DNA from: a virus
Taxonomy: Duplodnaviria > Caudoviricetes
Direction: 5' to 3' (one strand)
Length of the DNA stretch: 64,000 nt
IMG/VR virus record: IMGVR_UViG_3300031416_000352
Location: 6,245-70,244 of that record
Shown: positions 1-64,000 of the stretch, piece after piece
Numbering within the stretch: position 1 is the first letter of the stretch
Layout: each line of letters starts with the position of its first letter
Notes under the pieces: generated by a model
What the model was told of the DNA's origin: nothing
Database searches by the model: none
The model's input: the letters and a program-made list of their open reading frames with translations, nothing else
Translations under genes and position numbers: made by a program

Positions 1-693
1 GTACGCAATGGGCGCATCAGCGGGCTGGGCCTGGGGTGCTGTGCACTTTGCGCGGACAGTCTTTGCCAGCCGCAGGAACGGATCGAGCGACACGCCAAAG
101 GAAAGCGCCTCTTGGTTGGCTGCGTGCGCCAGGTCTTCCAGTTCGCTGTCATCAATTGCGCACACCACCGGCTCGGCCTGCACCGCTGCCAAGTCACCTG
201 CCGAGGAATCCTCGGTAGCTGGAAGGGCTGGGGTGGGGGCAAGGGCGGTACGCAACCCTTCGAGCGGCATCCCTGGCTCTGTCGCTGCATCAAGGACCGC
301 TTCCGCCGCTGATTCAGTGCAATCGGTGCGCCCGGCGAAACCGAGTATCAGCATCGCCAATCCTCGGCGCATCTTGTCCCATTCAGGCACAGCCACTGCT
401 GCGGGCGCTGCCTGTGCTGCCACCGCCTGGGCCCGCTCCAAGGCTGCACGAATCTGGATAGTCGGTCCGTTCGCACCGCCCAGCATTGCCTCTACAGCAT
501 CAAGTCCAGACAGTGCAGCCTTGACTTGCTGTTGGTTTGGTGAGAGGTTTGGAAGCGGGCCAACACCTGTTGCCGCTGTTCCATCAGAGTAAGTGCGAGT
601 GACTACAGCTGCCTCGCCTGATACGGCGCAGTGTTCGCAAATAGCCCCCTCGGCAGTCTTGAGGGGAGCGGAAGAGTTGTTTTCATTGGACAT
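1..693 (-). CDS. Hypothetical phage protein, 3' end truncated by window edge (MSNENNSSAPLKTAEG...)
   Basis: Manual translation: ATG at 693 preceded by GGAG, open for 231 codons to position 1; overlaps the methyltransferase stop; absent from the ORF track because no stop codon lies in the window. Confidence 0.75.
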   Translation of the reverse strand, partial: MSNENNSSAPLKTAEGAICEHCAVSGEAAVVTRTYSDGTAATGVGPLPNLSPNQQQVKAALSGLDAVEAMLGGANGPTIQIRAALERAQAVAAQAAPAAVAVPEWDKMRRGLAMLILGFAGRTDCTESAAEAVLDAATEPGMPLEGLRTALAPTPALPATEDSSAGDLAAVQAEPVVCAIDDSELEDLAHAANQEALSFGVSLDPFLRLAKTVRAKCTAPQAQPADAPIAY

Positions 694-2740
694 GGGATGC
701 TCCATAAATCTGTGCCTCGTGGGCGAAATTGGCACGCACCAGGGCCTCGGCCACCGGTGGGCACACTGAGTTGCCGCACATGCGCACCTGGGCGGTGGTG
801 CTCAGGTCGATCAGCGGCAGGTCCAGGGGGTTGCCCTCCACCTGCTTGCCGTTGCGGAAAAGGAGGGCCGGGTCGGGCACACGCTCAAAGCGGTAATCCC
901 GTGGAAAGCCCTGGGCGCGGAACAGCTCCCGGGGCTTGAGCATGCGCAGCGTGATGTCCACCAGCGCCCACCAGTTGCCCGCGTACCACATGAGCACGAG
1001 GTCGGATGGCTCCGGGAAGTGCTCCGGCAGGTACTTGTGCAGCAGCTCGGCGCACTGGCGCGCCCGGGCGGCCTGGTCATGCGACAGCGTGGAGGCCGGC
1101 ACCTGGGCGACTTGCACCAGGCCCATGCGGGATTTGGTGGGCACCGTGTGCATGGGCACGCTGCAGGCGCTGTCCTGCCCACCTTCGCTGTAATACTTCA
1201 CCAGGTAGGCAGTAATCAGGCGCTGGTTGCTGCCGGCAGCCGTGATGGTAGACATCGGGTCATCGGCCGCACGCCCGTCGCCGTCGTAGAAGCCGCCGTT
1301 GGCCTGCTCTAGGCATGCCGCCGCCAGCGCGCTGGTTGCGCCGCTCGCGGTGACGGTGTTCAGTGGGATCTCCAGGCTGCGGATGCCGTGGCTGAAACGC
1401 TTGGTGCCGTCCTTGCCTTCGCCGTGGCCCATGTCCACCAGGTGCGCTGCCACCATGCCCATCTGGATGCCGGTGCTTGGGCGCTTGGGCGTGCCGCCAG
1501 CGGTCACGGTTGGCAAAGGCGCATCCATGGCGCTGCCCACACTGCCGGTGTTGAACTTGGTGATGTGGGCCATGGCCAGGGCGCTTTTGACGCCACCGGC
1601 CACCACGGTGCCCATGGGCGCCTCGATGTTCTGCACGCGTGGCTCTTGGCCAGCGCGCTCGCCATACCCGATGGTGATCAGATTGGCGCCCACCAGGGCA
1701 TGGTGCGTGCCGCTGGCCGCCACCGTAGACAGCGGCGCATCCACAGAATGGCCCACCAGGTGCTGCTCGGTGGTGCCACGCAGCGGGGCCAGGGTAGGGG
1801 CCACCATCGAGAAGTGGCCACCCTTGACCTGGGCGCAGATGGTGCGCAGCGGCTCGTCGGCGGCCATGGTGCGCTGGTTGCTGCCATTGGCATGCTCATT
1901 TAGGAAAGGCGCGCTTTCGCCGACGATGAACGGGCTGGCGCTGGTGAGCACATGGCGCCACAAGCCCTTCGCCACTCGGCGCATGGTGTTGTCAACCAAG
2001 GCGCGCTTGCGGTCAAACACGCTCTGGGCTGGCAGAGAGAAGTCGATGCACTCGGCTGCCGTGCGCTGCTCGGCCAGCTTGCCCGCCAGCACGCGGCGGT
2101 CGGTAGCTTCGGCGTGGGTCTGCTCGGGCCAGGTGATTGCCAGTCCGTCGCGGCGCGCTACCAAAAATAGGCGCTTTCGTATGGTGGGGGTTCCATGGTC
2201 GCTCGCACGCAGCTCGCGCCAGTCCACTTGGTAACCGTGGGCCTTCAACTGGCGCACGAAGGATTGGAAGGTCTTTCCCTTGCGCGCCGGGTCTGGCCGG
2301 GCTTTGCCATCCTCGCCCACGATCAGCGGGCCCCAGGTCTGGAATTCCTCGACGTTCTCCAGCATCAGCACGCGCGGCTTGCACACCGCCACCCAGCGCA
2401 TGCCCACCCAGGCCAGGCCACGAATGCGCTTGTTCACTGGTGTGCCGCCCTTGGCCTTGGAGAAATGCTTGCAGTCTGGGGACAGCCAGACCAGGGCCAC
2501 CGGCTGGTTGCCCGTCACCTCGGCCGGCTTCACATCCCACACGCTTTCGCACAGGTGCTTGGTGTGCGGGTGGTTGACCGCATGCATGGCAAGGGCCTCG
2601 GGGTCGTGGTTGATGGCGATGTCCACCGGCCGCCGGAAAGCAGCCTCCAGCCCGGTGCTAGTGCCGCCGCCGCCGGCAAAGTTGTCGATGATCAATTCGC
2701 CGGGGAAGGCCAGGGGGAGAGTAAAAGCGTCACGTTTCAT
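683..2740 (-). CDS. C5 DNA cytosine methyltransferase, phage Dcm-like, with a long repeat-containing variable region
   Basis: Motif I DNFAGGGG, catalytic SPDC, MLENVEEF, RKRLF, and C-terminal QVRMCGNSVCP. Confidence 0.95.
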   Translation of the reverse strand: MKRDAFTLPLAFPGELIIDNFAGGGGTSTGLEAAFRRPVDIAINHDPEALAMHAVNHPHTKHLCESVWDVKPAEVTGNQPVALVWLSPDCKHFSKAKGGTPVNKRIRGLAWVGMRWVAVCKPRVLMLENVEEFQTWGPLIVGEDGKARPDPARKGKTFQSFVRQLKAHGYQVDWRELRASDHGTPTIRKRLFLVARRDGLAITWPEQTHAEATDRRVLAGKLAEQRTAAECIDFSLPAQSVFDRKRALVDNTMRRVAKGLWRHVLTSASPFIVGESAPFLNEHANGSNQRTMAADEPLRTICAQVKGGHFSMVAPTLAPLRGTTEQHLVGHSVDAPLSTVAASGTHHALVGANLITIGYGERAGQEPRVQNIEAPMGTVVAGGVKSALAMAHITKFNTGSVGSAMDAPLPTVTAGGTPKRPSTGIQMGMVAAHLVDMGHGEGKDGTKRFSHGIRSLEIPLNTVTASGATSALAAACLEQANGGFYDGDGRAADDPMSTITAAGSNQRLITAYLVKYYSEGGQDSACSVPMHTVPTKSRMGLVQVAQVPASTLSHDQAARARQCAELLHKYLPEHFPEPSDLVLMWYAGNWWALVDITLRMLKPRELFRAQGFPRDYRFERVPDPALLFRNGKQVEGNPLDLPLIDLSTTAQVRMCGNSVCPPVAEALVRANFAHEAQIYGASHVQ

Positions 2741-2751
2741 GGTGCTGGGCG

Positions 2752-2783
2752 AAAAAAAGCCCGCCGTGAGTGCTCAGGGCGGG
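2752..2783 (-). terminator. Intrinsic terminator in early-left operon
   Basis: GC stem (gcccgcc/gggcggg) followed by a U7 tract on the minus strand. Confidence 0.65.
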
Positions 2784-2843
2784 ATGTTGTTGATGTGACA
2801 ATACATGCGAGTTATGCTCGCAAGCCACATCTGAGGGGAATTA

Positions 2844-3539
2844 ATGAGTGAACAGAAGAATGGGTTTCGCCTGCCATTCGGCTTAGATTGTTTTCAAGCA
2901 TTTGTGCTGTTATTGCTGGCAGTGTTGCTCGCTAGTGCGTTCATTCACTTTTTTCTTGACCATATTCTCAGTTGGGTGGAGTCGCATCCGGGGCTGGCTT
3001 CTTGGGTTCAAGCGATTGGTAGCTTACTAGCAATAATTACAGCAATGGGGGGAGTTTGGTGGCAACACCGAAGTGGTAAAGAGGCGCACCTACATCAGAT
3101 TAAAGAAAATAATATTTTAATGGCTGAAATTTGCTTGGAGATGTGTAATGCAGTTCTCTCGGTAATAAGAGATACAGAAATTAAGCCGAAGAAATATGCC
3201 TCTTTAGCAGAAGGACTTATTGCTCAAAGCATGGCTAAAGAACTTCCAATAGAAAACCCTAACTCCGTCGAAAGAGTGCTTGATTTGCAAGAAACAATGC
3301 GTCTCCTTTTGTCAAAAAATTTGCCAATTGAACTAATGAAGTCGATTTTTAGCCTTCAGAAATTATTGGTGCAATATAAAGAATATTTGCTTGGTAGAAA
3401 AGTGGGTGACACTAGTAGCAAGGATATGTACGGTCCTTTAATGAGTAAAACGCAGTACAAGTTAAAAGAATCCACTCGAATAATAGCTGCAGTTAATGGA
3501 ATTATTAAGAATATTGCACAATATAAAGATAACCAGTAG
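2844..3539 (+). CDS. Low-GC moron: hypothetical membrane protein
   Basis: 231-aa ORF with two N-terminal hydrophobic helices, GAGGGG RBS, AT-rich, opposite in orientation to flanking genes. Confidence 0.8.
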   Translation: MSEQKNGFRLPFGLDCFQAFVLLLLAVLLASAFIHFFLDHILSWVESHPGLASWVQAIGSLLAIITAMGGVWWQHRSGKEAHLHQIKENNILMAEICLEMCNAVLSVIRDTEIKPKKYASLAEGLIAQSMAKELPIENPNSVERVLDLQETMRLLLSKNLPIELMKSIFSLQKLLVQYKEYLLGRKVGDTSSKDMYGPLMSKTQYKLKESTRIIAAVNGIIKNIAQYKDNQ

Positions 3540-3658
3540 AGTCAATGCCTGCATGGCAGGCCAAGACGTTCTATAGGTCGCGGAATGCTGGAGCGCCACA
3601 GTTGGCGCAGCGCATAGTTGGTGGTGCTAGCGCTGTTGACTAAAGGGTGCTGGCGCGC

Positions 3659-3856
3659 TCATTCGGCTTCCTCAGAACCGGGGAAGCGCTCAACTCGGCC
3701 ATCTGGGTAGTACAGCCGGCCGCCCACACGGCTGGGTAGGGAGTAGGCGTGCATGCGCCCTGGCAGCATGCCGGGGTTCTGGCGCAGCTCGGCGCCTTGG
3801 TATTCCCAGGCCTGCGGCTTGTGGGGCTTGTCTTCGATGTCGTGTGGATGGCGCAT
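3659..3856 (-). CDS. Small hypothetical phage protein (MRHPHDIEDK...)
   Basis: GAGG RBS before ATG 3856; phage-like codon usage; AYSLPSRVGGRLYYPDGR motif. Confidence 0.6.
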   Translation of the reverse strand: MRHPHDIEDKPHKPQAWEYQGAELRQNPGMLPGRMHAYSLPSRVGGRLYYPDGRVERFPGSEEAE

Positions 3857-3956
3857 GGGTGCCTCGGAAAGCAAAAGACCAGCGCGGGGCTGGCTGGTAG
3901 GTTAGGGGTTGGGGTATCAGCACAGGACGCGGCGCGCCCTCTGGTCATAGCCCATG

Positions 3957-3982
3957 AAAAAGCCCGGCACGGGGCCGGGCTT
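3957..3982 (-). terminator. Intrinsic terminator after the DUF2303 gene
   Basis: agcccggc/gccgggct stem plus U tract on the minus strand. Confidence 0.7.
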
Positions 3983-3999
3983 CGGTAGGGGTGGTGGGA

Positions 4000-4836
4000 T
4001 TAGATGGAGGCTGCGCCGTTGAGCACCTGCAGACCTGTTTCCTTGGCAATGTGGGCGCGCAGCTGCTTCACAGCATCCTCGATCACCTTGTGGGGGCGGA
4101 TCAGCTCCAGCCACATCACCAGGTGGCCGCCGTCCGCGATGCGGTAGCGGAAACGCACGTCCAGGCGGTACTTCTCGCCGTTCTCGAACACCGGCACGCC
4201 GATGGAGAACTGTTCGGGAATGGTCATGGTGCCCTTCACGGCGCTGCCGGCCACGTCCTCGTCGTAGGTGAACTGGGTAGAGCCATCAGTCAGGCGCACG
4301 CTGCTCTTGAAGTTCACCTTCTTGGTGGCTTCGAGGGTGCGGCAGATTTCCAGCAGGGTGGCGCCATCGGGGCTACCGGGCTCGCCGGCGGCCGATTTGA
4401 TGTAGACCACATCGACCATGTTGGATTCCAGGAACTGCGCCATATCCAGCTGGTTGTGCTTCTTGCCATCAATGCCGGTCCAGGCCTTCCACTCGGGCGA
4501 CAGCGGCGCGTCGTACTTGGCGCGATGGTCGCCCCAGCCTGCGCCGTCAGCGTTGTGGTTGAACACAGCGGTGAAGGTGGGCGGGTTGATGGTTGAAAAC
4601 AGGCGGGTGCTGTCGTCGGACTGGTCGTTGACCACGGCGATGAACGATTCGGCATCGTTGAGCGTGGTGGTACCGCGCTTGCGCGTGGGTGCGTCCAGCA
4701 TGCGCTCCAGATCGACCGCGTTGAAGTTGTCGGGGATCAGCACCACGGGGGTGGCGCCGATGAAGCGGGTGGGCTGGTTGCAGGCTGCCAGGGCATCGTT
4801 GGCGGCAACTTCGGTGCGAATTTCATTCAGGTCCAT
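4000..4836 (-). CDS. DUF2303 (YfdQ-like) family phage protein
   Basis: P.RKRGTTTL.DAESFI, W.DHRA.Y...LS.EWKAW, Q..MAQFLE.N and F.IGVPVFENG motifs. Confidence 0.85.
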   Translation of the reverse strand: MDLNEIRTEVAANDALAACNQPTRFIGATPVVLIPDNFNAVDLERMLDAPTRKRGTTTLNDAESFIAVVNDQSDDSTRLFSTINPPTFTAVFNHNADGAGWGDHRAKYDAPLSPEWKAWTGIDGKKHNQLDMAQFLESNMVDVVYIKSAAGEPGSPDGATLLEICRTLEATKKVNFKSSVRLTDGSTQFTYDEDVAGSAVKGTMTIPEQFSIGVPVFENGEKYRLDVRFRYRIADGGHLVMWLELIRPHKVIEDAVKQLRAHIAKETGLQVLNGAASI

Positions 4837-4893
4837 GGGGTACTCCTATGTGGTGGACGGTTGGGAGAAGGGACTGATCCCGGGCGGGCCGGA

Positions 4894-5307
4894 TCAGTGG
4901 ACGGCGCGCAGCGGGGTTGCTGGCGCTTCTTCGGGGGCTTTGCGCAACTCGGACTGCGCGGTAGCTTCCTGGTCTGCGGTGCGCAGGCCATCGAGCGTCT
5001 GCTGGCGCGGGTTTTCGCGCTGCAGGTTGTTGTTGGGCGTGGCGAACATGAGGGTCTTGCCGCGCACCGGCTGGGGCAGCTTGGTTTTCACGTCGGTGTC
5101 CAGCTCGACCTGGCCGGCGTTGCCGCCCTGGGGTTTGAGCTTGATTTTCAAAGTCATTTCACTGACCTTGCCTGTCTCGGTGCTGGCGTGAACCATGTCG
5201 TTGAGGGCGTCGGCCAGATCCTCACGAAGGTCGGGCAGCGCTGCCAAGAAGTCCTCAAAGGACTTGCGATCCACCTTCTTGGTGGGGTTGATAAGTTTCT
5301 GAGCCAT
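4894..5307 (-). CDS. YfdP-like phage protein, usual partner of DUF2303
   Basis: ETGKVSEMTLKIKLKP and TLMFATPNNNLQRENPRQQTL motifs; directly upstream of the yfdQ-like gene. Confidence 0.75.
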   Translation of the reverse strand: MAQKLINPTKKVDRKSFEDFLAALPDLREDLADALNDMVHASTETGKVSEMTLKIKLKPQGGNAGQVELDTDVKTKLPQPVRGKTLMFATPNNNLQRENPRQQTLDGLRTADQEATAQSELRKAPEEAPATPLRAVH

Positions 5308-5319
5308 TCAGGCCTCCAT

Positions 5320-5343
5320 AAAAAATGCCCGCGGTCGCGGGCG
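5320..5343 (-). terminator. Intrinsic terminator
   Basis: gcccgcg/cgcgggc stem plus U tract on the minus strand. Confidence 0.65.
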
Positions 5344-5358
5344 GGTGACGATGTCGGC

Positions 5359-5952
5359 TCAGGTGCGGCCGGCTTCGGGTGGGGGGGACTTTTCGCCGGC
5401 TGCTGCACCACCTGGGCGGTACTGCAGAACGTCGATGGCGGCCTGGGTGTTCATGCTGGAAGCGAGGAGTCGGGCCTTCTGATCCGAATCTGGCGCCGTC
5501 GCTGCCAGCGCTTCCAGTTGGGTGCGCACCGCCGCCATCAGGGTGATGACACGACCGCTGGAGCTGTACACGTCGAAGTTCTGGGCATTCATGCCTGCCG
5601 CCTCGGCGATTTCGCTGGGGATGGGCAGGGTCATGTCAACCACCTTGACATCGCTGGCGCAGTCTGCGCACTCGCAAGGGCCGCTTGGCTTGCTCGAGAC
5701 GCGCATCGGGGATGCTCCCACAGCAGTGGCGGCCGCACGGTCCAGGTCGTGCAGCCCGAATTTTTCCCGGACGAAGTCAGCGATGCTTTCAGCACAAGGA
5801 GCCGCGTTTTGGCTGGGAGCAGCTTTATCCGTGACGGGGGTAGCCGCATCGTCTTTGGATGGGGCTGCTTTGGCGCGCTGGCTGTGCTTGGCTTCCAGCA
5901 CGGCACCCAGGATGGACAGGGCCAGAAGGGAGGAGAGTCGATTGCTGTACAT
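5359..5952 (-). CDS. Hypothetical phage protein
   Basis: 197-aa ORF in early-left operon orientation, with RBS and phage-like codon usage. Confidence 0.65.
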   Translation of the reverse strand: MYSNRLSSLLALSILGAVLEAKHSQRAKAAPSKDDAATPVTDKAAPSQNAAPCAESIADFVREKFGLHDLDRAAATAVGASPMRVSSKPSGPCECADCASDVKVVDMTLPIPSEIAEAAGMNAQNFDVYSSSGRVITLMAAVRTQLEALAATAPDSDQKARLLASSMNTQAAIDVLQYRPGGAAAGEKSPPPEAGRT

Positions 5953-5977
5953 AGTTGGTCTTTCAGGGAAACAGGCG

Positions 5978-6000
5978 AAAAAAACCCGCGCAAAGGCGGG
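5978..6000 (-). terminator. Intrinsic terminator
   Basis: cccgc stem plus U7 tract on the minus strand. Confidence 0.6.
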
Positions 6001-6030
6001 CGGGCGGGTGGGTGGGTGGAGTGGTCGCTA

Positions 6031-6318
6031 TCAGTGGGTCTGATTGGCTTGCTGGTTGTGGTAGCCCTCAAACAAAGGCGAAAGCTGCACGCGGAGGTCA
6101 ATGCCTTCATCCAGAGCTGCGCCGTAGCTGGCGAGCGCTGCTCCAGCGGCGTACAAGCAGCCGTATAGCGCTGTAATGGAGCCGTGCTTTTTGGTGTGCT
6201 CGTTCATCAAGTCGATGATCGGATGCGCAACAGCCTCGATAGCGTGGTTGGCCTCATCGGCCGGGATCTCGTTGGTTTCGCGGTGCACGCCTGGCGGCAG
6301 GGTGGTGTCGTTGTCCAT
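6031..6318 (-). CDS. Hypothetical phage protein
   Basis: 95-aa ORF with AGGA RBS, operon orientation. Confidence 0.65.
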   Translation of the reverse strand: MDNDTTLPPGVHRETNEIPADEANHAIEAVAHPIIDLMNEHTKKHGSITALYGCLYAAGAALASYGAALDEGIDLRVQLSPLFEGYHNQQANQTH

Positions 6319-6349
6319 AACAGTCCTAAAGGGTGGTGGTCGTTGCTAT

Positions 6350-6439
6350 TTAGATCGGGAGGCCGGACATGTAAGCCGCTGCCAACAAAGCGACGGCGGA
6401 AAACATCAGCCAGGCAAAAAGAAATTGAAGGACTTTCAC
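6350..6439 (-). CDS. 29-aa hydrophobic peptide (MKVLQFLFAWLMFSAVALLAAAYMSGLPI)
   Basis: Manual translation; GTG start overlaps the upstream TGA (GTGA coupling); single TM helix; below the ORF-track cutoff. Confidence 0.5.
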   Translation of the reverse strand: MKVLQFLFAWLMFSAVALLAAAYMSGLPI

Positions 6440-18831: not shown

Positions 18832-21144
18832 ATGCACGACACACAGACCGAACTTGATCCTGTGGACACCCCGGAAGGCCCTCTCACGGTGGCCGAGTAC
18901 CGCGAGATCCACGAGGAAATCGACAACCAGCCCCGCGATTGGCGCCCAGTGGCTGACCGGGAGATGGACTATGCCGAGGGCAACCAGCTCAAGACCGAGC
19001 TGCTGGAGGCGCAGAAGAAACTGGGCATTCCCCCATCCATGGAGAACCTGATCGGCGCGGCGCTCGAAGGCATTCGCGGCCACGAGGAAGCGACCCGCAC
19101 AGACTGGCGCGTGACTGCCAACGGCCAGCCAGGCGGCCAGGACGTGGCCGACGCCATCAGCTTCAAGCTCAACGAGGCAGAGCGCAACGCAAAGGCCGAT
19201 GACGCCTGCAGCAAGGCCTTCTATCCGCAGATCGGGGTGGGGCTGGGCTGGGTGGAGGTGACGAAAGGCGATGACCCATTTGCCTTCCCCTACCAGTGCA
19301 AGGCCGTCAACCGAAACGAGATTCACTGGGACTGGGCTGCGCAGGAGGATGACTTGTCCGATGCGCGGTGGCTGCGCCGTCAGCGCTGGATGCACCCCAG
19401 CCGCCTGGCGCGGGTGTTCCCCGAGCATGCAGAGCTGATCCGCCGATTTGGCAAGGCCGGCACGGGCTGGTGGAGCGAGTACGACGATGTGGGCTACGGA
19501 GGTGGCAGCACGGGTATGAGCCGTGCCTTTGACGTGGCACGCTCCTGGACGCTGGCCGAGGATCGCTGGTACAACCCTTTCAACAAGGAAGTGTGCGCGA
19601 CCGAGCTGTGGTATCGCCGCTGGGTTGATGTGGTGGTGCTCAAGAGCCGCGACGGCCGGGTGGTGGAGTACGACGAGGCGAACCCCGCGCACGTTCACGC
19701 GGTGGCCAATCGCCTGGTGGAGTTCCGGCGCTCCGTGGTGGCGCGGGTGCGCCGCAGCTATTGGCTGGGGCCTCACGTCCTGTTCGACGGCCCGACGCCC
19801 TATGCGCATCGCTTCTTCCCCTATGTGCCGTTCTGGGGCTTCCGCGAGGAAAACACGCGCGTGCCCTTCGGCTACATCCGTAACATGCTCTACCAGCAGG
19901 ACACGCTCAACAGCGGCAACAGCCGGCTGCGCTGGGGCATGAGTGCCTACCGCGTGACGCGCACCAAGGGCGCGGTGGCTATGCCTGACGATGTGTTTCG
20001 CCGCACCATCGGCCGCCTCGATGCCGACATCGTGCTCGACTCTGCCCACATGGCGCAGCCGGGCGCAACCTTCAAGGTGGAGCGCGATTACGAGCTGAAC
20101 GCGCAGCAGCTGGACATGCTGGCCAGCGCGCGCCAGGCCATTGAGCGCGTGAACCCAGCTGCAGCAGGGGCATTCAGCGGCCGGCGCGGCACCGCGACCA
20201 GCGGCGTGCAGGAGCAGACCCAGGTAGACCAGGCAAACCAGAGCCTGGCGCACATGATGGGCAACTTCAAGCGTGGCCGCACCCAGGTGGGCGAGCTGCT
20301 GATGTCGATGATCGTGCAGGACATGGGCAAGGAGGAAACCACGGTGGTGATCGCGGGCGATGCGCTCACGCCAGAGCGCACCATCGTCATCAACCACCCA
20401 GAGGCAGATCCGGTGACGGGCTACCCCTACCTTTCCAATGACCTGCAGCGCACGCGGCTGATGGTGGGCTTGGAGGACGTGCCGAGCAGCCCGACCTATC
20501 GCGGCCAGCAGCTCAACGCTATGAGCGAGGTAGTGAAGGCAATGCCGCCGCAGTTCCAAGCCGTGGTGATGCCGCTGATGGCTTCCCTGATGGACGTGCC
20601 ATTCAAGGACCAGCTGGTGACAGCGCTGCAAAAGGCAGGATCCCAGGAATCGCCCGAGCAGGTGGAGCAGCGCATCAAGCAAGCCGTGGCCCAGGCGCTC
20701 AAGGACGCCGGCAACGAGCTCAAGGCGCGCGAGCTGGACATGAAAGAGCGCAAGACGGACGCGGAAATCAAGCAGATCGTGGCCCAGGCAGTGCAGATCG
20801 GCGTGCAGGCGGCATTCGGCTCGATGCAGGGCGCGGCCCAGGTGGCACAGATGCCGATGATCGCCCCCATCGCCGACGCCATCATGCAGGGCGCGGGCTA
20901 CCAGAAGCCAAGCCCAGGTGGCGACGATCCGAACTTCCCTGTGCCTGCGCAGACGGCGGCCATGAACATCAAGAGCCCATACATCCAGGGCCAGGGGCCA
21001 GAGCTTGCGCCCGAAGCGGAGGCCGAGGCAGGCGCGGTTCCGCCCGTTCGCGAGAACACGAGCCCCAACTTCCCACCCGTGCCGCAAGACCCCGGTACCG
21101 GCCAGACCGGCATCGAGACGGCGGCGCCAGGCGACAACCTGTAG
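18832..21144 (+). CDS. Portal protein (P22/N4-like)
   Basis: 770 aa following terL; W...ADREMDYAEGNQ, GIGLGWVEV-like and FPYVPFWGFRE motifs; C-terminal coiled coil. Confidence 0.88.
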   Translation: MHDTQTELDPVDTPEGPLTVAEYREIHEEIDNQPRDWRPVADREMDYAEGNQLKTELLEAQKKLGIPPSMENLIGAALEGIRGHEEATRTDWRVTANGQPGGQDVADAISFKLNEAERNAKADDACSKAFYPQIGVGLGWVEVTKGDDPFAFPYQCKAVNRNEIHWDWAAQEDDLSDARWLRRQRWMHPSRLARVFPEHAELIRRFGKAGTGWWSEYDDVGYGGGSTGMSRAFDVARSWTLAEDRWYNPFNKEVCATELWYRRWVDVVVLKSRDGRVVEYDEANPAHVHAVANRLVEFRRSVVARVRRSYWLGPHVLFDGPTPYAHRFFPYVPFWGFREENTRVPFGYIRNMLYQQDTLNSGNSRLRWGMSAYRVTRTKGAVAMPDDVFRRTIGRLDADIVLDSAHMAQPGATFKVERDYELNAQQLDMLASARQAIERVNPAAAGAFSGRRGTATSGVQEQTQVDQANQSLAHMMGNFKRGRTQVGELLMSMIVQDMGKEETTVVIAGDALTPERTIVINHPEADPVTGYPYLSNDLQRTRLMVGLEDVPSSPTYRGQQLNAMSEVVKAMPPQFQAVVMPLMASLMDVPFKDQLVTALQKAGSQESPEQVEQRIKQAVAQALKDAGNELKARELDMKERKTDAEIKQIVAQAVQIGVQAAFGSMQGAAQVAQMPMIAPIADAIMQGAGYQKPSPGGDDPNFPVPAQTAAMNIKSPYIQGQGPELAPEAEAEAGAVPPVRENTSPNFPPVPQDPGTGQTGIETAAPGDNL

Positions 21145-56139: not shown

Positions 56140-57441
56140 TCAGCACCTTGCAATGGGGATTTCGTCGATGTTGGTGGTGTAGCGGGGCGTGCGCCGCTCC
56201 TGGCGCATGCGCCATCCAGCTTCGTCTTGCGAGGCAAAGCCTGTGCTGGCAACGTGCACCGTGCCTTTGCCGAAGCGGCCGTTCACCCGATCCATGGCCT
56301 CCATGAGGCGGCTTTGATCCCGGCCAACGTCTGCGGCGGCGAGCAGGTCGTGCTGCTCATGGCGGCTTTCGGCAAGGTCCATCAGCATCACGCCGGCCTT
56401 GGCCAGGCGAAACCCAGGCTGGTAGATAGAGTGCATGCCGCCCAGCGCGGCGCGCACCAGGGCTTTTGTGTCGGAGGTGGGGGGAACGAGTTGGGTGGTT
56501 GTCTGCCCGTAGAACCTGGGCCCTGGCCGGAAGGGTGAGGTATGGGCGAAGACCTGCAGGGCGCCGGCGCGCAGATCCTGCTTGCGCAGCTTCTCGGCCG
56601 CCCGCGTGGCGAACTCGCTGACGGCTTCGAGCAGGGGCTCGAGCTCGTTGATGCCGTGGCCAAAGCTGCGCGTGCACGCAATCTGCTTCTTGGGCGGCGG
56701 TGCCAGTTCCATCGGAATGCAGCTGATGCCCTGCAGCTCGCGGACGGTGCGCTCGAGCACGACACCCCAGTTGCTGCGCACCATGGGGCCCGGCATGCGG
56801 GAGACATCGAGGGCGGTAACAATCCCGCGCTCTGCCAGTTGCAAAGCGATCCGCCGGCCGATACCCCAGACATCGCCGGCCATGGTCCGGCGCAGCACAT
56901 CCTCGCGCATGGCCGCGGGCATCTCCTGCCAATTGCAGACCCGGGCCAGCTCGGCCGGGTAGCTGCCGGGCTTGCGCTCTGAGTCTTTGGCCACATGGTT
57001 GCAGAGCTTGGCCAGGGTCTTGGTGGGGGCCAGGCCTATGCAGCAGGGTATACCGACCCATTGCAGGATGCGCGCGCGCACGGCCCATGCACGGCGGTTC
57101 AGATCGCGCACGCCGGCCAGGTCGCCAATGAAGGATTCGTCAATGGAGTAGATTTCCTGCCGGGGCCCCAGGCCGGCGGCCAGCGTCATCATGCGGTCGC
57201 TCATGTCGCCGTACAGCTCGAAGTTGGCCGACAGGCACACTAAACCCTTGAGCTCGACCAGGTGCTGTAGCTGGAAGAAGGGCTGGCCCATCTTGACGCC
57301 CAAGGCTTTGGCCTCATCCGATCGGGCGATGGCACAGCCGTCGTTGTTGCTGAGCACCACCACCGGCAGGCCCTGCAGGCTCGGCCGGAATACCCGCTCA
57401 CAGCTCACATAAAAGTTGTTGCCGTCGATGAGTGCATACAT
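56140..57441 (-). CDS. umuC: Y-family DNA polymerase V subunit UmuC
   Basis: [27 protein letters not shown] and DUF4113 C-terminus. Confidence 0.96.
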
Positions 57442-57448
57442 GGCTGCC

Positions 57449-57886
57449 TCACGCGAAGATCTTGATGCAGCTGGTGACCACGCCCCAGATCTCCAGGCTC
57501 TGGCCTTCCTTGGGCGTGATGTCGGGGTAGGTGGGGTTGCCGGCCTTGAGCTTGACCATGCCTGCAGCCTTGAACAGCTTCTTGACCGTGAACTCCCCCT
57601 CGATGACGGCCACGACTATGCACCCGTGGCGGGCCTGCAGCGCCCGGTCGACCGCGACCAGGTCGCCATCATCAATGCCGAACTCGCGCATGGACGGCCC
57701 TGCCACGCGCAGCAGGTAGGTAGCCTGCGGGTGCTTAACGAGCAGGGCGCCTATGTCCAGCCGGGTGACGGCAAAGTCCTCAGCTGGCGAGGGGAAGCCC
57801 GCGCGCACAGACCCTTCGGCCCGCAGAATCGAGAGCGGGGCAGCTGACACCAGGATTGGTGTGTTGGGGTGTAGAATACTGTGCAT
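57449..57886 (-). CDS. umuD: DNA polymerase V subunit UmuD (S24)
   Basis: AGFPSPAED cleavage site, GPSM serine and FTVKKL lysine. Confidence 0.95.
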
Positions 57887-57894
57887 ACATACAG
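57879..57894. promoter_or_regulatory. LexA (SOS) box overlapping the umuD start
   Basis: taCTGtgcatacataCAGta, near consensus. Confidence 0.9.
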
Positions 57895-57960
57895 TATACC
57901 CAGGCGCCGCGTGTAAGGCCAGAATAGGCTAATTTCGCCTAACTTAGCGTCTTCATTTTT

Positions 57961-58011
57961 GGTCTACGGGATGGCCTACAGGTGGTTATTGATGTATGTA
58001 AGTGATTGATT
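57961..58011. promoter_or_regulatory. att arm: tandem arm-type-like repeats and IHF site
   Basis: GGTCTACGGG (57961) / GGCCTACAGG (57973) direct repeats; 57999-58011 reverse complement AATCAATCACTTA fits WATCAANNNNTTR. Confidence 0.6.
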
Positions 58012-58017
58012 TATAAG

Positions 58018-58407
58018 CTATCTAGGCAGACTCCGTTTCCGCCAAGAATCAAACCCCTGAGTGTTCGCATTCAGGGGTTTTTCTTCGTTCTGGATTCCTA
58101 CCATTGCTCGCAAGTCGGCGTCGGGCATTGCCAGGTAGGTCCTAAAGCCATCAGCGGCTCTCTTTTCGTCATTCTTCTCGGATTGCTCTAGCTCATCCGC
58201 CATGGCTTCCATGTATGCGCGTGTTGGGTCCTGGCCTGCGATCACACGAAGCGTCCCTCGCATCCTCCAGTTTGCTGCTCTTGTCCCTGCCTTCATCTGC
58301 GAGATGTGGCTCTTGGGGATTTCAAGTATTTCCGCAAGCCTGGTCTGACTTCCCACGACTCCTGCAGCTTTCTCGATTAGGAAATTTAATCGCTCATCTG
58401 TTGCCAT
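58018..58407 (-). CDS. Inovirus repressor (XRE-like HTH) whose 3' end crosses the att core
   Basis: LIEKAAGVVGSQTRLAEILEIPKSHISQMKAG HTH; AAGGAG RBS before ATG 58407. Confidence 0.85.
   Translation of the reverse strand: MATDERLNFLIEKAAGVVGSQTRLAEILEIPKSHISQMKAGTRAANWRMRGTLRVIAGQDPTRAYMEAMADELEQSEKNDEKRAADGFRTYLAMPDADLRAMVGIQNEEKPLNANTQGFDSWRKRSLPR
58031..58044 (+). other. att core: 3' end of a tRNA-Ser-type gene (CTCCGTTTCCGCCA)
   Basis: Parses as end of T-stem CTC + acceptor strand CGTTTCC + G73 discriminator + CCA; followed by a terminator and preceded by IHF/arm sites; the rest of the tRNA is absent here. Confidence 0.7.
58051..58084 (+). terminator. Terminator downstream of the tRNA 3' fragment, inside the inovirus repressor ORF
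   Basis: aaacccctga/tcaggggttt stem plus T run. Confidence 0.75.
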
Positions 58408-58436
58408 TTTTGGTAACTCCTTGTACATTTCAGTTG

Positions 58437-58463
58437 CCTAATTTGGTAACTTACCAATTTAGG
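58437..58463. promoter_or_regulatory. Inovirus operator palindrome between divergent promoters
   Basis: cctaatttggtaa-c-ttaccaatttagg near-perfect inverted repeat; TTGGTAAC also repeated at about 58410. Confidence 0.7.
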
Positions 58464-58595
58464 TAATTTTCTCACACCTAGCCCGGCCAGCGTGCAGTGA
58501 TCAACAGCCCGGCCTACAGCCAGAAGCAGGGCAGGGGTGAGGCTTGTAACTGGGGTCTTTCATTTCACGCTCACCCCAAGCGTTTGGAGAAGTAA

Positions 58596-58916
58596 ATGTC
58601 CGAAGAAATCAAGCTGCCGTCGTTCATCCAAATCTTTGGCCTGCAGCCAGTGCAAAACGGCACTAGCAAGACTGGCCGCGCCTACAGCATCCAGAAGGCA
58701 AGTTGCCAGCTCCTGGATGAAGAAGGCGTTCAAATGCAAGTGGCCATCTTGCGCTTGCCCGCTGCCGATGTGGGCAACATCAAGCCCGGCATCTACCGCC
58801 CTGCTTTTGGCCTGCGCATCGACTACCAAAACAATGAGGTAGCTCCGGTGCTGCTCAGCCTGACGCCGATGCCTACTCGCCAGTCCCCCGCTGCGGCTGC
58901 CGCTGCTAAGTCCTGA
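58596..58916 (+). CDS. Inovirus ssDNA-binding protein (pV-like)
   Basis: GTSKTGRAYSIQKASCQL...KPGIYRPAFGL OB-fold signature; GGAG RBS. Confidence 0.8.
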   Translation: MSEEIKLPSFIQIFGLQPVQNGTSKTGRAYSIQKASCQLLDEEGVQMQVAILRLPAADVGNIKPGIYRPAFGLRIDYQNNEVAPVLLSLTPMPTRQSPAAAAAAKS

Positions 58917-59454: not shown

Positions 59455-59688
59455 ATGAACAAGTTCGCAATCGCCCGTCTGGGTCAAAAAGCAAAGCTGG
59501 CCGCTCTGGCCGCAACCGCTGGTGCACTGACCGTCGCCCAGCCTGCCATGGCAGAAGCTATCGACGTCGCTGCCGTCGTGTCTGACGTCAAGGGCCAGAT
59601 CGCTGCTGTGGTGTTGCTGGGCGGCGCTGTGCTGCTGGTGTACGCCGCTGTCAAGGCGTTCAAGTGGGTTCGCGGCGCAATGTCCTAA
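59455..59688 (+). CDS. Major coat protein (pVIII-like)
   Basis: Signal peptide ending PAMA; amphipathic segment, TM helix and basic C-terminus VKAFKWVRGAM. Confidence 0.9.
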   Translation: MNKFAIARLGQKAKLAALAATAGALTVAQPAMAEAIDVAAVVSDVKGQIAAVVLLGGAVLLVYAAVKAFKWVRGAMS

Positions 59689-59771
59689 GCCTGGCCTGCA
59701 CAGTCCCCAGACCGGCCGGCTGGGGCCTTTGCAAAAGCGCATGCAAGGTGCGTTTCTTCAAAGGGGTTCAT

Positions 59772-59831
59772 ATGGGCTTGTTCGTCATCGTTGCGGTACT
59801 GGGGGCAGCATGGCTCATCTTTACCGCCTAA
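59772..59831 (+). CDS. 19-aa hydrophobic peptide (MGLFVIVAVLGAAWLIFTA), pIX-like
   Basis: Manual translation; AAGGGG RBS; overlaps the pIII start. Confidence 0.6.
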   Translation: MGLFVIVAVLGAAWLIFTA

Positions 59832-61201
59832 TCGTGGTCTTCTTCTGCCTGCTTCCTTCTGCGTTTGCAACTACCGTCGCAATGGATAGTTGGTCGACGG
59901 GTTGGGAAGATTCGGGCAAGTCTATAAGTGTGGGTAAGGCTTGGCTTTCTACCTATAGGCCGCAAGTCATCGGCGTCAATTCTTGGGTCTCTGATACCGC
60001 TACTGTTGGTGGTCGTGCGGTAGAAAAAGCTACCTTTGACCTTTGCCCAAAGCAATACCCAAATTTCAACGTGTTGAAGCGTATCTGTTACGACACTCTT
60101 TCCTGTCCTGAGGGCTTCAAGGACGTCAATGGTGAGTGCAAGCCAAAGGGCTGCGCTGAGGGTACTCATGAGGAAGGCGGCATGTGTGTTCCTGATAAAT
60201 GTCCTGAGGGGCAAATATTAGACGCAGGCATATGCATACCTGACCCTGATCTTTGTCCTGATGGAAAGAAAAAGGTCAATGGCAAATGCGAAGAAAAAAA
60301 GTGCAAACGTGACTCACCTTATACCGTTGGCTATGCGGTTAATACACCCACGGCGATGTGCGAAGCTGGCTGCGAATACACGACGGGCAAGCCTATTGCA
60401 CGCTCCTGCAGCGATGGGCAAAACGGTACGCCTGCTGGCTGCTTTGTGACCTTCTACGCGACTGGCAACACATGCCAAGGCCCTGGCCCTACAAAGCCTG
60501 GGGAAGGTCCTGGCGGTGGCAAGCCAGGTGAAGGTAGCAATCCTGGCGGCGGTGGTACTGGTGGTGGTACGGGCGGCGGTACTGGCGGTGGTACTGGCGG
60601 TGGCACAGGTGGTAGCACAGGTGGTGGTACTGGCGGCGGTACCGGTGGTGGCACGGGCGGCGGTACTGGCGGTACTGGTGGTACTGGTGGTACTGGTGGT
60701 ACTGGTGGTACTGGTGGTACTGGTGGCACCGGTGGAAGTGATTCCGGCAGCAGCGGCGACAAGGAAAACGAAGGCGACTTCTGCAAGCAAAACCCCAAGC
60801 TCGATATCTGCTCCAAGGGCGCATTTGGCGGTACTTGCTCGGCGGGCTTCAAGTGTGAAGGTGATGCCCTGCAATGCGCGGTTGCGCGTGAGCAGCACAT
60901 TCGCAACTGCCAGTTGTTTGAGACGCCCAGCGATGAGTCGAACCTCTACGGCAATGAAAAAGGCAAGACGGGCAACCAGACCGAAGGCCTGCCCGGTAAC
61001 GAGCTGCTGAACATGTCGGGCCGTATCGACACCACTGATTCGCTCGGTGGCGGTAGCTGCATTCAAGACTTGGCGCTTACCGTTGCTAATTCGTCCGTAA
61101 CGATTCCTATGTCAAGGGTGTGCCCGTACCTGGGCATGCTCGGCAATATCTTGGTAGCCATAGCGATGCTGCTGGCTATGCGCATCTTGTTCAAGGGGTA
61201 A
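59810..61201 (+). CDS. Attachment protein pIII-like
   Basis: Signal peptide, Cys-rich repeats, Gly/Thr linker, virulence-factor-TspB-like C-terminus and C-terminal TM anchor. Confidence 0.88.
   Translation: MAHLYRLIVVFFCLLPSAFATTVAMDSWSTGWEDSGKSISVGKAWLSTYRPQVIGVNSWVSDTATVGGRAVEKATFDLCPKQYPNFNVLKRICYDTLSCPEGFKDVNGECKPKGCAEGTHEEGGMCVPDKCPEGQILDAGICIPDPDLCPDGKKKVNGKCEEKKCKRDSPYTVGYAVNTPTAMCEAGCEYTTGKPIARSCSDGQNGTPAGCFVTFYATGNTCQGPGPTKPGEGPGGGKPGEGSNPGGGGTGGGTGGGTGGGTGGGTGGSTGGGTGGGTGGGTGGGTGGTGGTGGTGGTGGTGGTGGTGGSDSGSSGDKENEGDFCKQNPKLDICSKGAFGGTCSAGFKCEGDALQCAVAREQHIRNCQLFETPSDESNLYGNEKGKTGNQTEGLPGNELLNMSGRIDTTDSLGGGSCIQDLALTVANSSVTIPMSRVCPYLGMLGNILVAIAMLLAMRILFKG
60547..60735 (+). repeat. GGTG/GGT-encoding tandem repeats (Gly-Thr linker of pIII)
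   Basis: Repeated ggcggcggtact-type 12-mers, then a run of ggtggtact 9-mers. Confidence 0.9.
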
Positions 61202-61204
61202 GCC

Positions 61205-61504
61205 ATGCCTTTAATCATTGCCGCGATCGGCGGCATGCTGATCAATCTGGTGGGCACAATGGTGGGCCGCGTGCTGATTGCGCTCGGTATTAGCGTCATC
61301 ACCTATTCGGGTCTGTCCGTCACGCTCGATTGGATGAAAACGCAAGCTGTGTCTGCGCTGGGCGGCCTGCCCTCCGAAGTCATCGGCATGCTGTCGACCA
61401 TGAAAGTCGGTGTGGCTATCAGCATCGTGACGTCTGCCCTACTAGCTCGCCAAGTGCTTAACGGTTTGACCGGCGACACCATGAAAAAGTGGGTCGGTAA
61501 ATGA
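61205..61504 (+). CDS. Minor coat pVI-like (DUF2523)
   Basis: Hydrophobic 99 aa, VGRVLIALGISVITYSG motif, between pIII and Zot. Confidence 0.85.
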   Translation: MPLIIAAIGGMLINLVGTMVGRVLIALGISVITYSGLSVTLDWMKTQAVSALGGLPSEVIGMLSTMKVGVAISIVTSALLARQVLNGLTGDTMKKWVGK

Positions 61505-62616
61505 TCTATTTGACCACTGGCGGCAATGGCGCGGGCAAGACGCTGTTTACGCTGAAAGATGTGCGTGATCAGCAGCTGAAAGAAAACCGGCCCGTCTACT
61601 TCCACGGCTTCACGGCCAATCAAATCCTGCTGGACTGGGGCTGGAAAGAGTTTGATCCGAAGAAGTGGCAAGACCTGCCTGACGGCTCGGTGTGCGTGTT
61701 CGATGAATGCCAGAACGAATTCCCGGCAAAGATACAGGGCGAGTTGCCTGACTACATCAACGCTGTAGCGCAGTTCCGTCGCAAGCGCGGCTTTGACTTC
61801 TGGATGATTACGCCGCATCCGTCGCTGATTCATGTGAACGTTCGGCGCTTGATTGAATCGCCTAGTTGGCACCGGCATTTCAAGCGCAGCTTTGGCGCGG
61901 ATATGGTCTCGGAATTGCGCTTCAACCATGCGGAGATGAGTTGCGAAAAGCCCAATGCGGGCAAGAGCGGCCAGGTCAGCATGCGTGCTTATCCAAAGGA
62001 GGTCTACGACTGGTACAAGTCGGCGTCGTTGCATACCGGCAAGCGCAAGCTGCCTAAGCAACTGTGGATCTTCCTGGCGTGCATCGTCGTCATTCCGGTG
62101 CTGATCTACTTTGTGTGGCAACACTTCTTGAACATGGGCAAGGTCGCCACAGACCCAGCAGCAAAGCCTGGAGAGGCCATGCAAGCAACCGCTGCCGGTG
62201 GCGCACCAGCCAGCAAGCACATGACCATTACTGAATACCTGGAGACGCGCAAACCTCGCATAGCTGATTTGCCGCATACCGCGCCTATGTATGACGAGGT
62301 GACTAAGCCAGTAACTGCGCCTTACCCGGCTGCATGCGTTCAAGACGCCAAGCGCTGCCTTTGCTACACGCAGCAAGGCACGCTCATGCGCACCTCAGGC
62401 GAGACCTGTCAGCAGATCGTGAAATACGGCTACTTCATGGATTGGGATGATGGCCGGAACAAGCAAGGGGCTGCGCAGCCAGCAATCCAGAAGCCGCAGC
62501 AACAGCAGCCCAGCTATCGCCCGCAGCCGGTCTATGACCCAGCGCCTGAGCTGGTGGGGTTTGAGGAGCGCATGGCCGCGCGCAATGCAACAGTGGTGTC
62601 AAGCCTCAAGCGCTGA
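61501..62616 (+). CDS. zot: Zot-like assembly ATPase (pI)
   Basis: N-terminal Walker A GGNGAGKT, Walker B VFDECQ, RKRGFDFWMITP, TM helix at about residue 190. Confidence 0.93.
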   Translation: MIYLTTGGNGAGKTLFTLKDVRDQQLKENRPVYFHGFTANQILLDWGWKEFDPKKWQDLPDGSVCVFDECQNEFPAKIQGELPDYINAVAQFRRKRGFDFWMITPHPSLIHVNVRRLIESPSWHRHFKRSFGADMVSELRFNHAEMSCEKPNAGKSGQVSMRAYPKEVYDWYKSASLHTGKRKLPKQLWIFLACIVVIPVLIYFVWQHFLNMGKVATDPAAKPGEAMQATAAGGAPASKHMTITEYLETRKPRIADLPHTAPMYDEVTKPVTAPYPAACVQDAKRCLCYTQQGTLMRTSGETCQQIVKYGYFMDWDDGRNKQGAAQPAIQKPQQQQPSYRPQPVYDPAPELVGFEERMAARNATVVSSLKR

Positions 62617-62850: not shown

Positions 62851-62921
62851 AAACCAAAGAAAAAGGGCCTGAACCGCGTCAACAGTTCAAGCCCTTGGAT
62901 GCCAATGCATTAGGAGTGCAT

Positions 62922-63782
62922 ATGACGTTGAGAATTATCGATGGTACGGCGTACGAGCGCAAGCGCTTGGACAATCAGTTCAAGGTCAAAACGACTGACC
63001 TTGGCAATGGTCACCAAGAGACGGTTATCACCCAAGGATGGGAATGGGTCGAGCGCTCGGATATGACCCCCTTCGCTATCCAGATGGCTGCGGAATGCAT
63101 AGAGAAGAACCGCAACGATCCCAAGGCCATAGAAGAGCGTGAAGCCCTCAACAAAGAACGCTCCGCCAAGCGGGCAAAAAAGGCCGTCAGGCAGCTTTGC
63201 AAGGTCGCTGGTGCCGACACCCTTATGACCCTCGTTTATCGCTCAAATCAGCAGGATTTGGCCCTCTGCAAAAAACATCTGAAAGAGTTCGTCCGTCGGG
63301 TCAAGCGGGTGATTCCTGATTTCGTTGCCATTGCGGCTTTTGAGCAGCAAGAACGCGGGGCCTGGCACGTGCACATGGCCTGTCGGCGCATTGCTACGGT
63401 GTTGCCTGGTGCCGATGGCATACGCATGAAAAGCTTCAACGTGTTGCGCGCCATATGGCGTTCGGTGACGAATGAACACGGGGGCAATGTCGATGTGTCT
63501 CGCCGCAAGCAAACAAGTCAGCGCAGTGCAGCTCGCATAGCGAACTACATCAGCAAATACATCATGAAAGCGTTTGAGCTGGGGGAGAAGCACTCGAACC
63601 GGTGGACGAAGTTCGGTGATGTGACCTTGCCGCAGTCCAAGCAACTGGGCGACTTCTCAACGATGCAAGAGGCTGTGGCCATGGTCCTTGGCCGCCAGCC
63701 TGAGGGGACAGAAATCGTGAACTGCTATCTCAGCCGTTGGCAAGACGTGTTCTATTTCGTGGTAGAAAAAAGTTCTGCCTAG
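62922..63782 (+). CDS. Rolling-circle replication initiator (HUH endonuclease)
   Basis: TLVY motif 1, ERGAWHVHMA (HUH) and NYISKY catalytic Tyr; AGGAG RBS before ATG 62922. Confidence 0.9.
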   Translation: MTLRIIDGTAYERKRLDNQFKVKTTDLGNGHQETVITQGWEWVERSDMTPFAIQMAAECIEKNRNDPKAIEEREALNKERSAKRAKKAVRQLCKVAGADTLMTLVYRSNQQDLALCKKHLKEFVRRVKRVIPDFVAIAAFEQQERGAWHVHMACRRIATVLPGADGIRMKSFNVLRAIWRSVTNEHGGNVDVSRRKQTSQRSAARIANYISKYIMKAFELGEKHSNRWTKFGDVTLPQSKQLGDFSTMQEAVAMVLGRQPEGTEIVNCYLSRWQDVFYFVVEKSSA

Positions 63783-64000
63783 CGCTCTTGGTGTTCGCCT
63801 TCAATTTTGACAAGAGCCCACTTGTATCCGATTGGTGCCATTGGCTGGGTGGTTGTGCTGTTGCGTAATTTCGACTCGTTTATGCCGTCCCGAATGGCGT
63901 TTTTCATCAAGATGTAAGAGAGATAGATGAGCGCTCCTGTGGCAACTATCAGAACTAGAAGCTCAATGATCCAAGCGTTTGGGTACGTGACGAAGTACAT
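63779..64000 (-). CDS. Low-GC membrane protein (inovirus cargo), possibly 5'-truncated by window edge
   Basis: TM helix IIELLVLIVATGALIYLSYIL; convergent with Rep. Confidence 0.6.
   Translation of the reverse strand: MYFVTYPNAWIIELLVLIVATGALIYLSYILMKNAIRDGINESKLRNSTTTQPMAPIGYKWALVKIEGEHQER

Follow-up and report, generated by a model that had tools for sequence, protein, structure and literature searches.

Can a mobile element that sits beside an integrated filamentous phage write the end of that phage's regulator, and does the phage respond when the element leaves? The locus that raises this question contains an inovirus gene for an HTH regulator, a putative repressor, whose reading frame runs through an att core and into the attachment arm of an adjoining tailed prophage. 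An initial annotation of this DNA postulated that the episomal, tRNA-adjacent, and tandem-prophage states each give the regulator a different tail, and that excision of the tailed prophage could thereby alter regulator stability, a genetic switch between two phages. The stretch of DNA that we analyzed, hereafter the window, is 64,000 nt long and corresponds to positions 6245 to 70244 of a 70,244-nt IMG/VR provirus record that probably comes from a phyllosphere metagenome.

A P22-like tailed prophage fills the window to about position 58030 (its portal gene lies at 18832-21144), and the inovirus occupies 58018 to the window end. The features that bear on the question are as follows.

56140-57441, minus strand: umuC of the tailed prophage, one of its last genes before the arm
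57449-57886, minus strand: umuD (Peptidase_S24) of the tailed prophage, also among the last genes before the arm
57897-58030, no strand assigned: att arm (P arm) belonging to the P22-like tailed prophage; its arm-type repeats, GGTCTAC and GATGGCCTACAG, are at 57961-57981
58018-58030, minus strand: neighbor-supplied ORF end (third base of a Ser codon, then L-P-R-stop); relatives have tRNA T-arm sequence there
58018-58428, minus strand: inovirus HTH regulator, putative repressor, 136 aa (phrog_638 transcriptional regulator, E 2e-7, residues 15-85)
58032-58044, plus strand: att core TCCGTTTCCGCCA, the tRNA-Ser(GCT) acceptor 3' strand plus CCA; its antisense reads W-R-K-R plus the first base of the tail
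58051-58080, plus strand: intrinsic terminator hairpin in the tRNA direction, inside the regulator ORF, where it encodes KPLNANTQGF
58397-58468, no strand assigned: candidate operators within the divergent promoter region, namely, a 22-nt repeat in three copies plus a palindrome of 33 nt (58434-58466)
58596-58916, plus strand: inovirus ssDNA-binding protein
59455-59688, plus strand: inovirus coat protein
59729-61201, plus strand: inovirus g3p-like protein
61205-61504, plus strand: inovirus g6p-like protein
61501-62616, plus strand: inovirus Zot/pI
62895-63782, plus strand: inovirus rolling-circle Rep
63779-64000, minus strand: inovirus 73-aa membrane ORF, its start codon formed by the final triplet of the record

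The confirmed inovirus gene set comprises Zot/pI, the rolling-circle Rep, the ssDNA-binding protein, and coat proteins. Both ends of the IMG/VR record are start codons, that of the 73-aa ORF at one end and, at record position 1, the ATG of a P4-type tyrosine integrase gene (domains Arm-DNA-bind_3, Phage_int_M, and Phage_integrase) at the other. Because the record was cut at gene boundaries, the tRNA, the inovirus recombinase gene, and the right att site are absent from it, and no tRNA was found in the window or in record positions 1 to 6400. A DNA search of the phage collection returned no match. The umuDC genes and the inovirus regulator share a strand, so any transcript of the regulator gene that reads through would cross umuDC in sense orientation. 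A LexA-type box, CTGT-N8-ACAG (57879-57894, within 57877-57896), overlaps the umuD start codon. The g3p-like protein has a long Gly/Thr-rich linker, with 12-nt tandem repeats (GGTGGTGGTACT-like) at window positions 60500-60736.

The regulator ORF ends in ...EEKPLNANTQGFDSWRKRSLPR*. Within this C terminus, W-R-K-R is encoded by TGG CGG AAA CGG, the reverse complement of 58033-58044, and S-L-P-R-stop is encoded by AGT CTG CCT AGA TAG, the reverse complement of 58018-58032. The ORF therefore does run antisense through the hairpin and core and take its last codons from the DNA to the left, just as the initial annotation had it. A better ribosome-binding site precedes Met8 (58407), which is likely the start of the protein. 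AlphaFold predicts a helical fold for residues 10 to 110 (pLDDT about 90), and residues 114 to 136 have a pLDDT below 50. The best fold matches in a Foldseek comparison with the PDB were the lambda cI N-terminal domain, 434 Cro, and XRE proteins; all are HTH regulators, and since their E-values were weak (best 0.09), we used them as an indication of fold only, one in which the predicted regulator resembles a lambda-cI/Cro-like HTH protein with weak scores. Dulem virus 61 was the sole match to the regulator in a tblastn search of 50,697 phage records.

Between the regulator and ssDNA-binding protein genes, a 22-nt repeat, TCnGTTGCC...TTTGGTAACT, occurs in three copies alongside the near-perfect 33-nt palindrome. 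No cro gene was identified in this divergent control region (58397-58468), where the operators are candidates only.

The core of the inovirus in the window, TGGCGGAAACGGA, is 12 to 13 nt long and identical to the 3' end of tRNA-Ser(GCT); TGGCGGAAACGG is the complement of the tRNA acceptor 3' strand plus CCA. The 12-mer is present once in the window. We identify it as a recombination core by comparison, namely, its identity to the tRNA-Ser(GCT) 3' end and the direct repeats around related prophages, and not by chance statistics; in at least 10 genomes the 12-mer is directly repeated 7 to 9 kb apart around related inovirus prophages. The earlier designation of this site as an att core is confirmed by both comparisons. 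Positions 58031-58032 (CT) are also common to tRNA-Ser, so neighbor-specific DNA starts at 58030 and the first tail codon differs in its third base only (AGT versus AGG). In runs X2, X6, and X7, related inoviruses show T-arm sequence of the tRNA directly left of 58031, which defines the segment in common as CT plus the 12-mer.

The hairpin at 58051-58080 has a folding energy of -26 to -27 kcal/mol (z about -3.8; range, -3.7 to -3.8) and passes a terminator scan on the plus strand only, that is, in the tRNA direction. The notion of a terminator within the regulator ORF thus stands as far as the hairpin goes, but the terminator call does not extend to the strand of the regulator. A hairpin occupies the same place in all 26 distinct relatives, built from at least six unrelated stems and always with its T-run in the tRNA direction, and the native sequence 3' of the tRNA bears a similar hairpin. 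These observations indicate that its main role is to serve as a tRNA terminator once the phage has integrated; in the episome, it is probably a terminator for the recombinase gene as well. Changes in the stem are compensatory and alter the encoded residues (P/F versus A/L), which argues for selection on the hairpin and not on the peptide.

A close relative on a JGI contig (L067) shows 93% identity at the DNA level and 98% in Rep. Its right-hand core and the host hairpin that follows (5904-5954) are 100% identical over 51 nt to window positions 58032-58082, so the prophage would be flanked by a direct repeat of about 55 nt that extends beyond the 13-nt core. The equivalent flanking repeat in Variovorax is about 27 nt. 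Host sequence capture or gene conversion could account for the repeat of about 55 nt. We considered the hairpin to be purely phage DNA and dropped this idea because of the identity with the host hairpin; the copy in the window may be of phage or host origin.

Relatives with the same design were found in 17 Comamonadaceae genomes (from Delftia, Comamonas, Variovorax, Acidovorax, Ottowia, Simplicispira, Alicycliphilus, and Polaromonas) and in 18 IMG/VR records. In all 17 genomes, a homologous ORF converges on a tRNA-Ser gene and enters it antisense; the gene is tRNA-Ser(GCT) in 14 cases and tRNA-Ser(TGA) in 3. A second copy of the core lies 7 to 9 kb off, at the far end of the inovirus prophage, in 10 of the 17, and three IMG/VR records are trimmed exactly at the core repeats. 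Next to the distal core copy is a gene for a resolvase-type serine recombinase (196 to 233 aa; PF00239) that converges with the regulator gene; in L067 it lies at 5302-5892 (196 aa; PF00239, E 4e-42).

We took the right end of the window's inovirus from this close relative, in which the same 73-aa ORF is followed by the 196-aa recombinase, a 12-nt spacer, the core, the hairpin, and host DNA with glmM. Projected onto the window, the L067 recombinase gene and right-hand core would map about 0.65 kb past its end. When 401 Comamonadaceae genomes were searched at the DNA level, no relative exceeded about 85% identity. Dulem virus 61 (L066; PP511899.1), a circular 6.8-kb inovirus reported from lemur saliva, is a member of the family; it encodes a regulator 53% identical to that of the window with the recombinase adjacent, and its host is probably a Comamonadaceae-type betaproteobacterium. 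In a Polaromonas contig (L036), the same regulator 3' ends stand before core copies at 129 and 8961, 8.8 kb apart, beside tRNA-Ser. This arrangement indicates a tandem inovirus array and shows an attP-type junction in chromosomes too.

The recombination unit resembles that of the Ralstonia phages phiRSM1, phiRSM3, and phiRs551, which encode a small serine recombinase that is resolvase/invertase-like and have a 13-nt attP core, TGGCGGAGAGGGT, equal to the tRNA-Ser 3' end; their attP lies between recombinase and repressor genes of the same orientation, and the repressor is reported to be unchanged by integration (PMC3816273, PMC5608472). The window's phage is likewise an inovirus of a family with a small serine recombinase (seen in L067, L005, and L013), an HTH gene beside attP, and a core that equals the tRNA-Ser 3' end and is repeated at both prophage ends. 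It differs in having convergent genes, a core within the regulator ORF, and a stop codon supplied by the flank. The hosts also differ (Comamonadaceae, with tRNA-Ser(GCT) or tRNA-Ser(TGA) as the target), and tblastn among the 50,697 phage records detected no similarity between the regulator and those phages.

The DNA on the left of the core had been assigned to the arm of the tailed prophage, and we reached the same assignment from its repeats. The motif GATGGCCTACAG at window positions 57970-57981 is also found just 5' of the int start codons in two other loci (L057 and L060), and a contig from the source sample joins it directly to the integrase ATG of the record; arm-type repeats are thus present at both ends of the tailed prophage, including upstream of its P4-type integrase gene. 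Among the 401 Comamonadaceae genomes, no copy of the arm was found except in G346, whose arm is 75% alike to that of the window. In other Comamonadaceae, integrases 50 to 61% identical to that of the record lie downstream of tRNA-Ser genes at a distance of about 190 nt, from which we infer that the tRNA, outside the record, is just upstream of the integrase gene of the tailed prophage.

Two unrelated elements would then occupy the 3' end of one tRNA-Ser(GCT) gene in tandem, as in other integrative elements. What is particular to the window, compared with other tandem tRNA arrays, is that the arm of one element provides a gene in the other with coding sequence and a stop codon. Another family member, in L019, has a regulator ORF that enters an arm that begins AGTCC and precedes an integrase of the same family; the ORF gains a 15-aa tail. 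Tails that begin with Ser, read from AGT as in the window, occur in the protein homologues P0006, P0008, P0009, P0011, and P0015. Judging from these sequences, tandem occupancy of the tRNA-Ser end recurs in L019 and probably in several other homologues. P4-type integrase elements at the same tRNA-Ser core in L019 (8213-9577) and G346 (G346:C1:3049492-3050887; L065) have the integrase gene at the tRNA-distal junction, which mirrors the arrangement that we infer for the window.

How does the C terminus of the regulator depend on the junction? Sixteen protein homologues, whose junction states were read from the protein tails alone, are alike up to WRKR and then diverge. By combining the window with tRNA-Ser(GCT) from L057 and the right end from L067, we reconstructed three forms of the window's regulator: 136 aa ending in SLPR in the window, 138 aa ending in RDSNPR beside the tRNA, and 173 aa at the episomal attP. 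The RDSNPR form is actually present in P0001 (95% identical). The initial annotation's central observation, that integration rewrites the C terminus, is upheld by natural relatives that show all three junction states with different tails, and translation of the attP and postexcision junctions gives the alternative C termini that it had anticipated.

The episomal tail of the window's phage, MLPTLNLALTPIIFGLRNAVYSTLRYRFGNPILQRQTLIGV, is 41 residues long and is the codon-aligned antisense of the recombinase C terminus, stopping at a rare CTA codon of the recombinase, which is the behavior expected of a shadow reading frame. Tails beside other integrase elements are 2 to 15 residues long; those found in relatives include SR, SPT, SPLK, SPPESNF, and the 15 aa of L019. 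Exceptions to the general pattern are L031, which stops before the core, and L023 and P0002, which read the core in another frame.

Reconstructed attP and tandem junctions (from L005, L013, L018, L023-L037, and L067) add 27 to 55 codons in 13 of 14 cases and none in Dulem virus 61, in whose circular genome a TGA directly follows the core. A single base change in the 3- to 15-nt spacer would close the episomal ORF, yet it is open in those 13. The phase in use gives the longest possible tail in 11 of the 14 attP reconstructions, and in 13 of the 14 the recombinase stop codon is separated from the core by a spacer whose length is a multiple of 3 (3, 9, 12, 15, or 87 nt). In L023, a 13-nt spacer and a 1-nt deletion before the core that shifts the regulator frame together restore the phase across attP. 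Only an episomal or tandem arrangement links these spacer and regulator-frame changes of L023. The terminal residues of episomal tails are hydrophobic (16 of 17), whereas those of integrated tails are polar. We considered conservation of the attP phase as proof that the tail is translated and dropped it, since descent and the recombinase frame can yield the same phase and L023 is long in all three frames.

We think it probable that the locus is the end of a phiRSM-like prophage and that the disordered, junction-dependent tail of its regulator is a neutral by-product. The window would contain the regulator-side end of an inovirus prophage integrated at the tRNA-Ser(GCT) 3' end by a small resolvase-type serine recombinase. 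In this inovirus family, the attP region is extremely compact, with the HTH regulator and recombinase genes converging on the core; the hairpin would give the tRNA a new terminator after integration, and hairpin and core sit within the last 20 or so codons of the regulator. Because the regulator ORF lacks a stop codon of its own, it is ended by whatever DNA follows the core. With the P22-like prophage and its P4-type tyrosine integrase between the tRNA and the inovirus, it ends in SLPR; next to the tRNA, it would end in RDSNPR; and in the episome, it would continue for about 41 more residues, antisense to the recombinase gene. The folded part of the regulator would end near residue 110, the disordered tail may be a product of genome compaction, and the exchange of SLPR for RDSNPR would have no regulatory effect.

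The anatomy of the locus, its core, and the dependence of the tail on the junction can be read directly from the DNA. By sequence, the only large change of tail, which may have an effect, is the one between the episomal and integrated forms. Against neutrality, the 13 open episomal tails among 14, the phase kept across attP, and the hydrophobic versus polar ends fit a selected, translated tail. Common descent, codon bias, and antisense hydropathy would also give these open-tail, phase, and hydropathy results by default.

Another explanation, which we find doubtful, is that integration exchanges one regulator isoform for another. The episomal tail of 27 to 55 aa with a hydrophobic end would destabilize or inactivate the regulator, and integration would supply a short polar tail and with it a stable, active form. 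The open tail in 13 of 14 reconstructions, a phase across attP that is kept even through one compensated shift, the hydrophobic versus polar C-terminal pentapeptides, and the predicted disorder of the regulator C terminus are all consistent with this idea. Parsell, Silber, and Sauer reportedly found in 1990 that nonpolar C termini promote proteolysis in E. coli. On the other side, the antisense of a charged recombinase C terminus in a GC-rich genome gives exactly such a tail by default, the length and sequence of the tail are unconserved (0 to 55 aa), and the circular form of Dulem virus 61 is tailless. Conservation of phase can come by descent and is partly enforced by the recombinase reading frame, and the recombinase gene is convergent and not cotranscribed with the regulator.

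There are two precedents for integration-dependent isoforms. In phiRSS0, the HTH regulator ORF13 has attP (dif) in its 3' end, and a stop codon made by integration shortens it from 156 to 130 aa (PMC3816273); a functional difference between the forms was hypothesized in the same review, which cites the result as unpublished. The window's regulator is similar in that integration shortens the C terminus of an HTH protein, from 173 to 136 or 138 aa, a pattern that is family-wide. Unlike phiRSS0, which uses host XerCD at dif, the window's family uses a tRNA-Ser end and a phage serine recombinase, and tblastn of the 50,697 phage records, a collection that may not include phiRSS0, found no sequence similarity between that phage and the regulator. 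In the mycobacteriophages BPs, Brujita, and Charlie, the repressor frame contains attP and the viral and prophage C termini differ, the proven case of integration-dependent immunity; the tyrosine integrase is cotranscribed downstream of rep, degradation tags are proven for both proteins, and the repressor loses about a quarter (PMC3694055). The analogy with BPs that had been drawn for the window is sound for the position of attP within the regulator reading frame, here at its extreme 3' end, but it fails for the integrase type and the gene order. The window's phage is an ssDNA filamentous phage with a convergent serine recombinase, and only a tail predicted to be disordered changes. The family joins a phiRSM recombination unit to an attP placed much as in ORF13 or BPs, and we found no description of such a regulator/attP arrangement for Comamonadaceae inoviruses in the literature.

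In its fullest form, the isoform explanation would have the Comamonadaceae inovirus family make two regulators by integration, the episomal one being lost to proteolysis or inactivated through its hydrophobic-ended 27- to 55-aa tail, so that integration fixes lysogeny. This would be an independently evolved immunity in ssDNA filamentous phages, with a tail that other elements at the tRNA end could edit. We consider this broader proposal unlikely.

It is improbable that the tail is irrelevant in every state because regulator transcripts end at the hairpin, with nonstop messages handled by tmRNA and the junction codons rarely or never translated. All relatives do have a strong hairpin directly upstream of the core, and on the strand of the regulator a short run rich in T comes after the hairpin (in the window, TTTGATTCTT). 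The regulator strand nevertheless fails the terminator scan, whereas the hairpin has a strong T-run when read in the direction of the tRNA.

A switch between the two phages, in which excision of the tailed prophage turns SLPR into RDSNPR and thereby alters regulator stability and inovirus production, is in our estimation very unlikely. The conversion itself follows from the anatomy; P0001 ends in RDSNPR, relatives in X2 and X6 adjoin the tRNA, and tandem occupancy recurs in L019 and the homologues with Ser-first tails. Yet this claim of the initial annotation lacks support: SLPR and RDSNPR are both short, polar, and -PR ended within a predicted disordered segment, many tails of this sort are tolerated across the family, and no known degradation signal is visible in the regulator tails. 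Least credible is an assembly chimera, in which two strains of the metagenome were joined across the core-plus-hairpin repeat of roughly 55 nt that the assembly of tailed prophage and inovirus spans; the phyllosphere source, short-k contigs of the source run that break at 58040-58061, and the other left and right contexts of the repeat in the same sample would allow it, but the repeat is shorter than a read and than the large k of usual assemblers, depths are similar (69 versus 55 to 66), and the same type of tandem junction occurs independently in L019 and several homologues.

The junction-dependent C terminus is real and family-wide, and the action of a switch between two phages is without support. 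Even if the tails are neutral, the window is a clear natural case of one mobile element giving coding sequence to a gene of another, and gene callers will report different "proteins" for one phage regulator, depending on the junction. The tRNA-Ser(GCT) gene of Comamonadaceae is also documented here as a landing site common to inoviruses and elements with P4-type integrases. If the exchange of tails does have an effect, it would offer a simple account of how such inoviruses sense integration, and integration-dependent immunity would extend beyond actinobacteriophages that use tyrosine integrases to filamentous phages that use serine recombinases.
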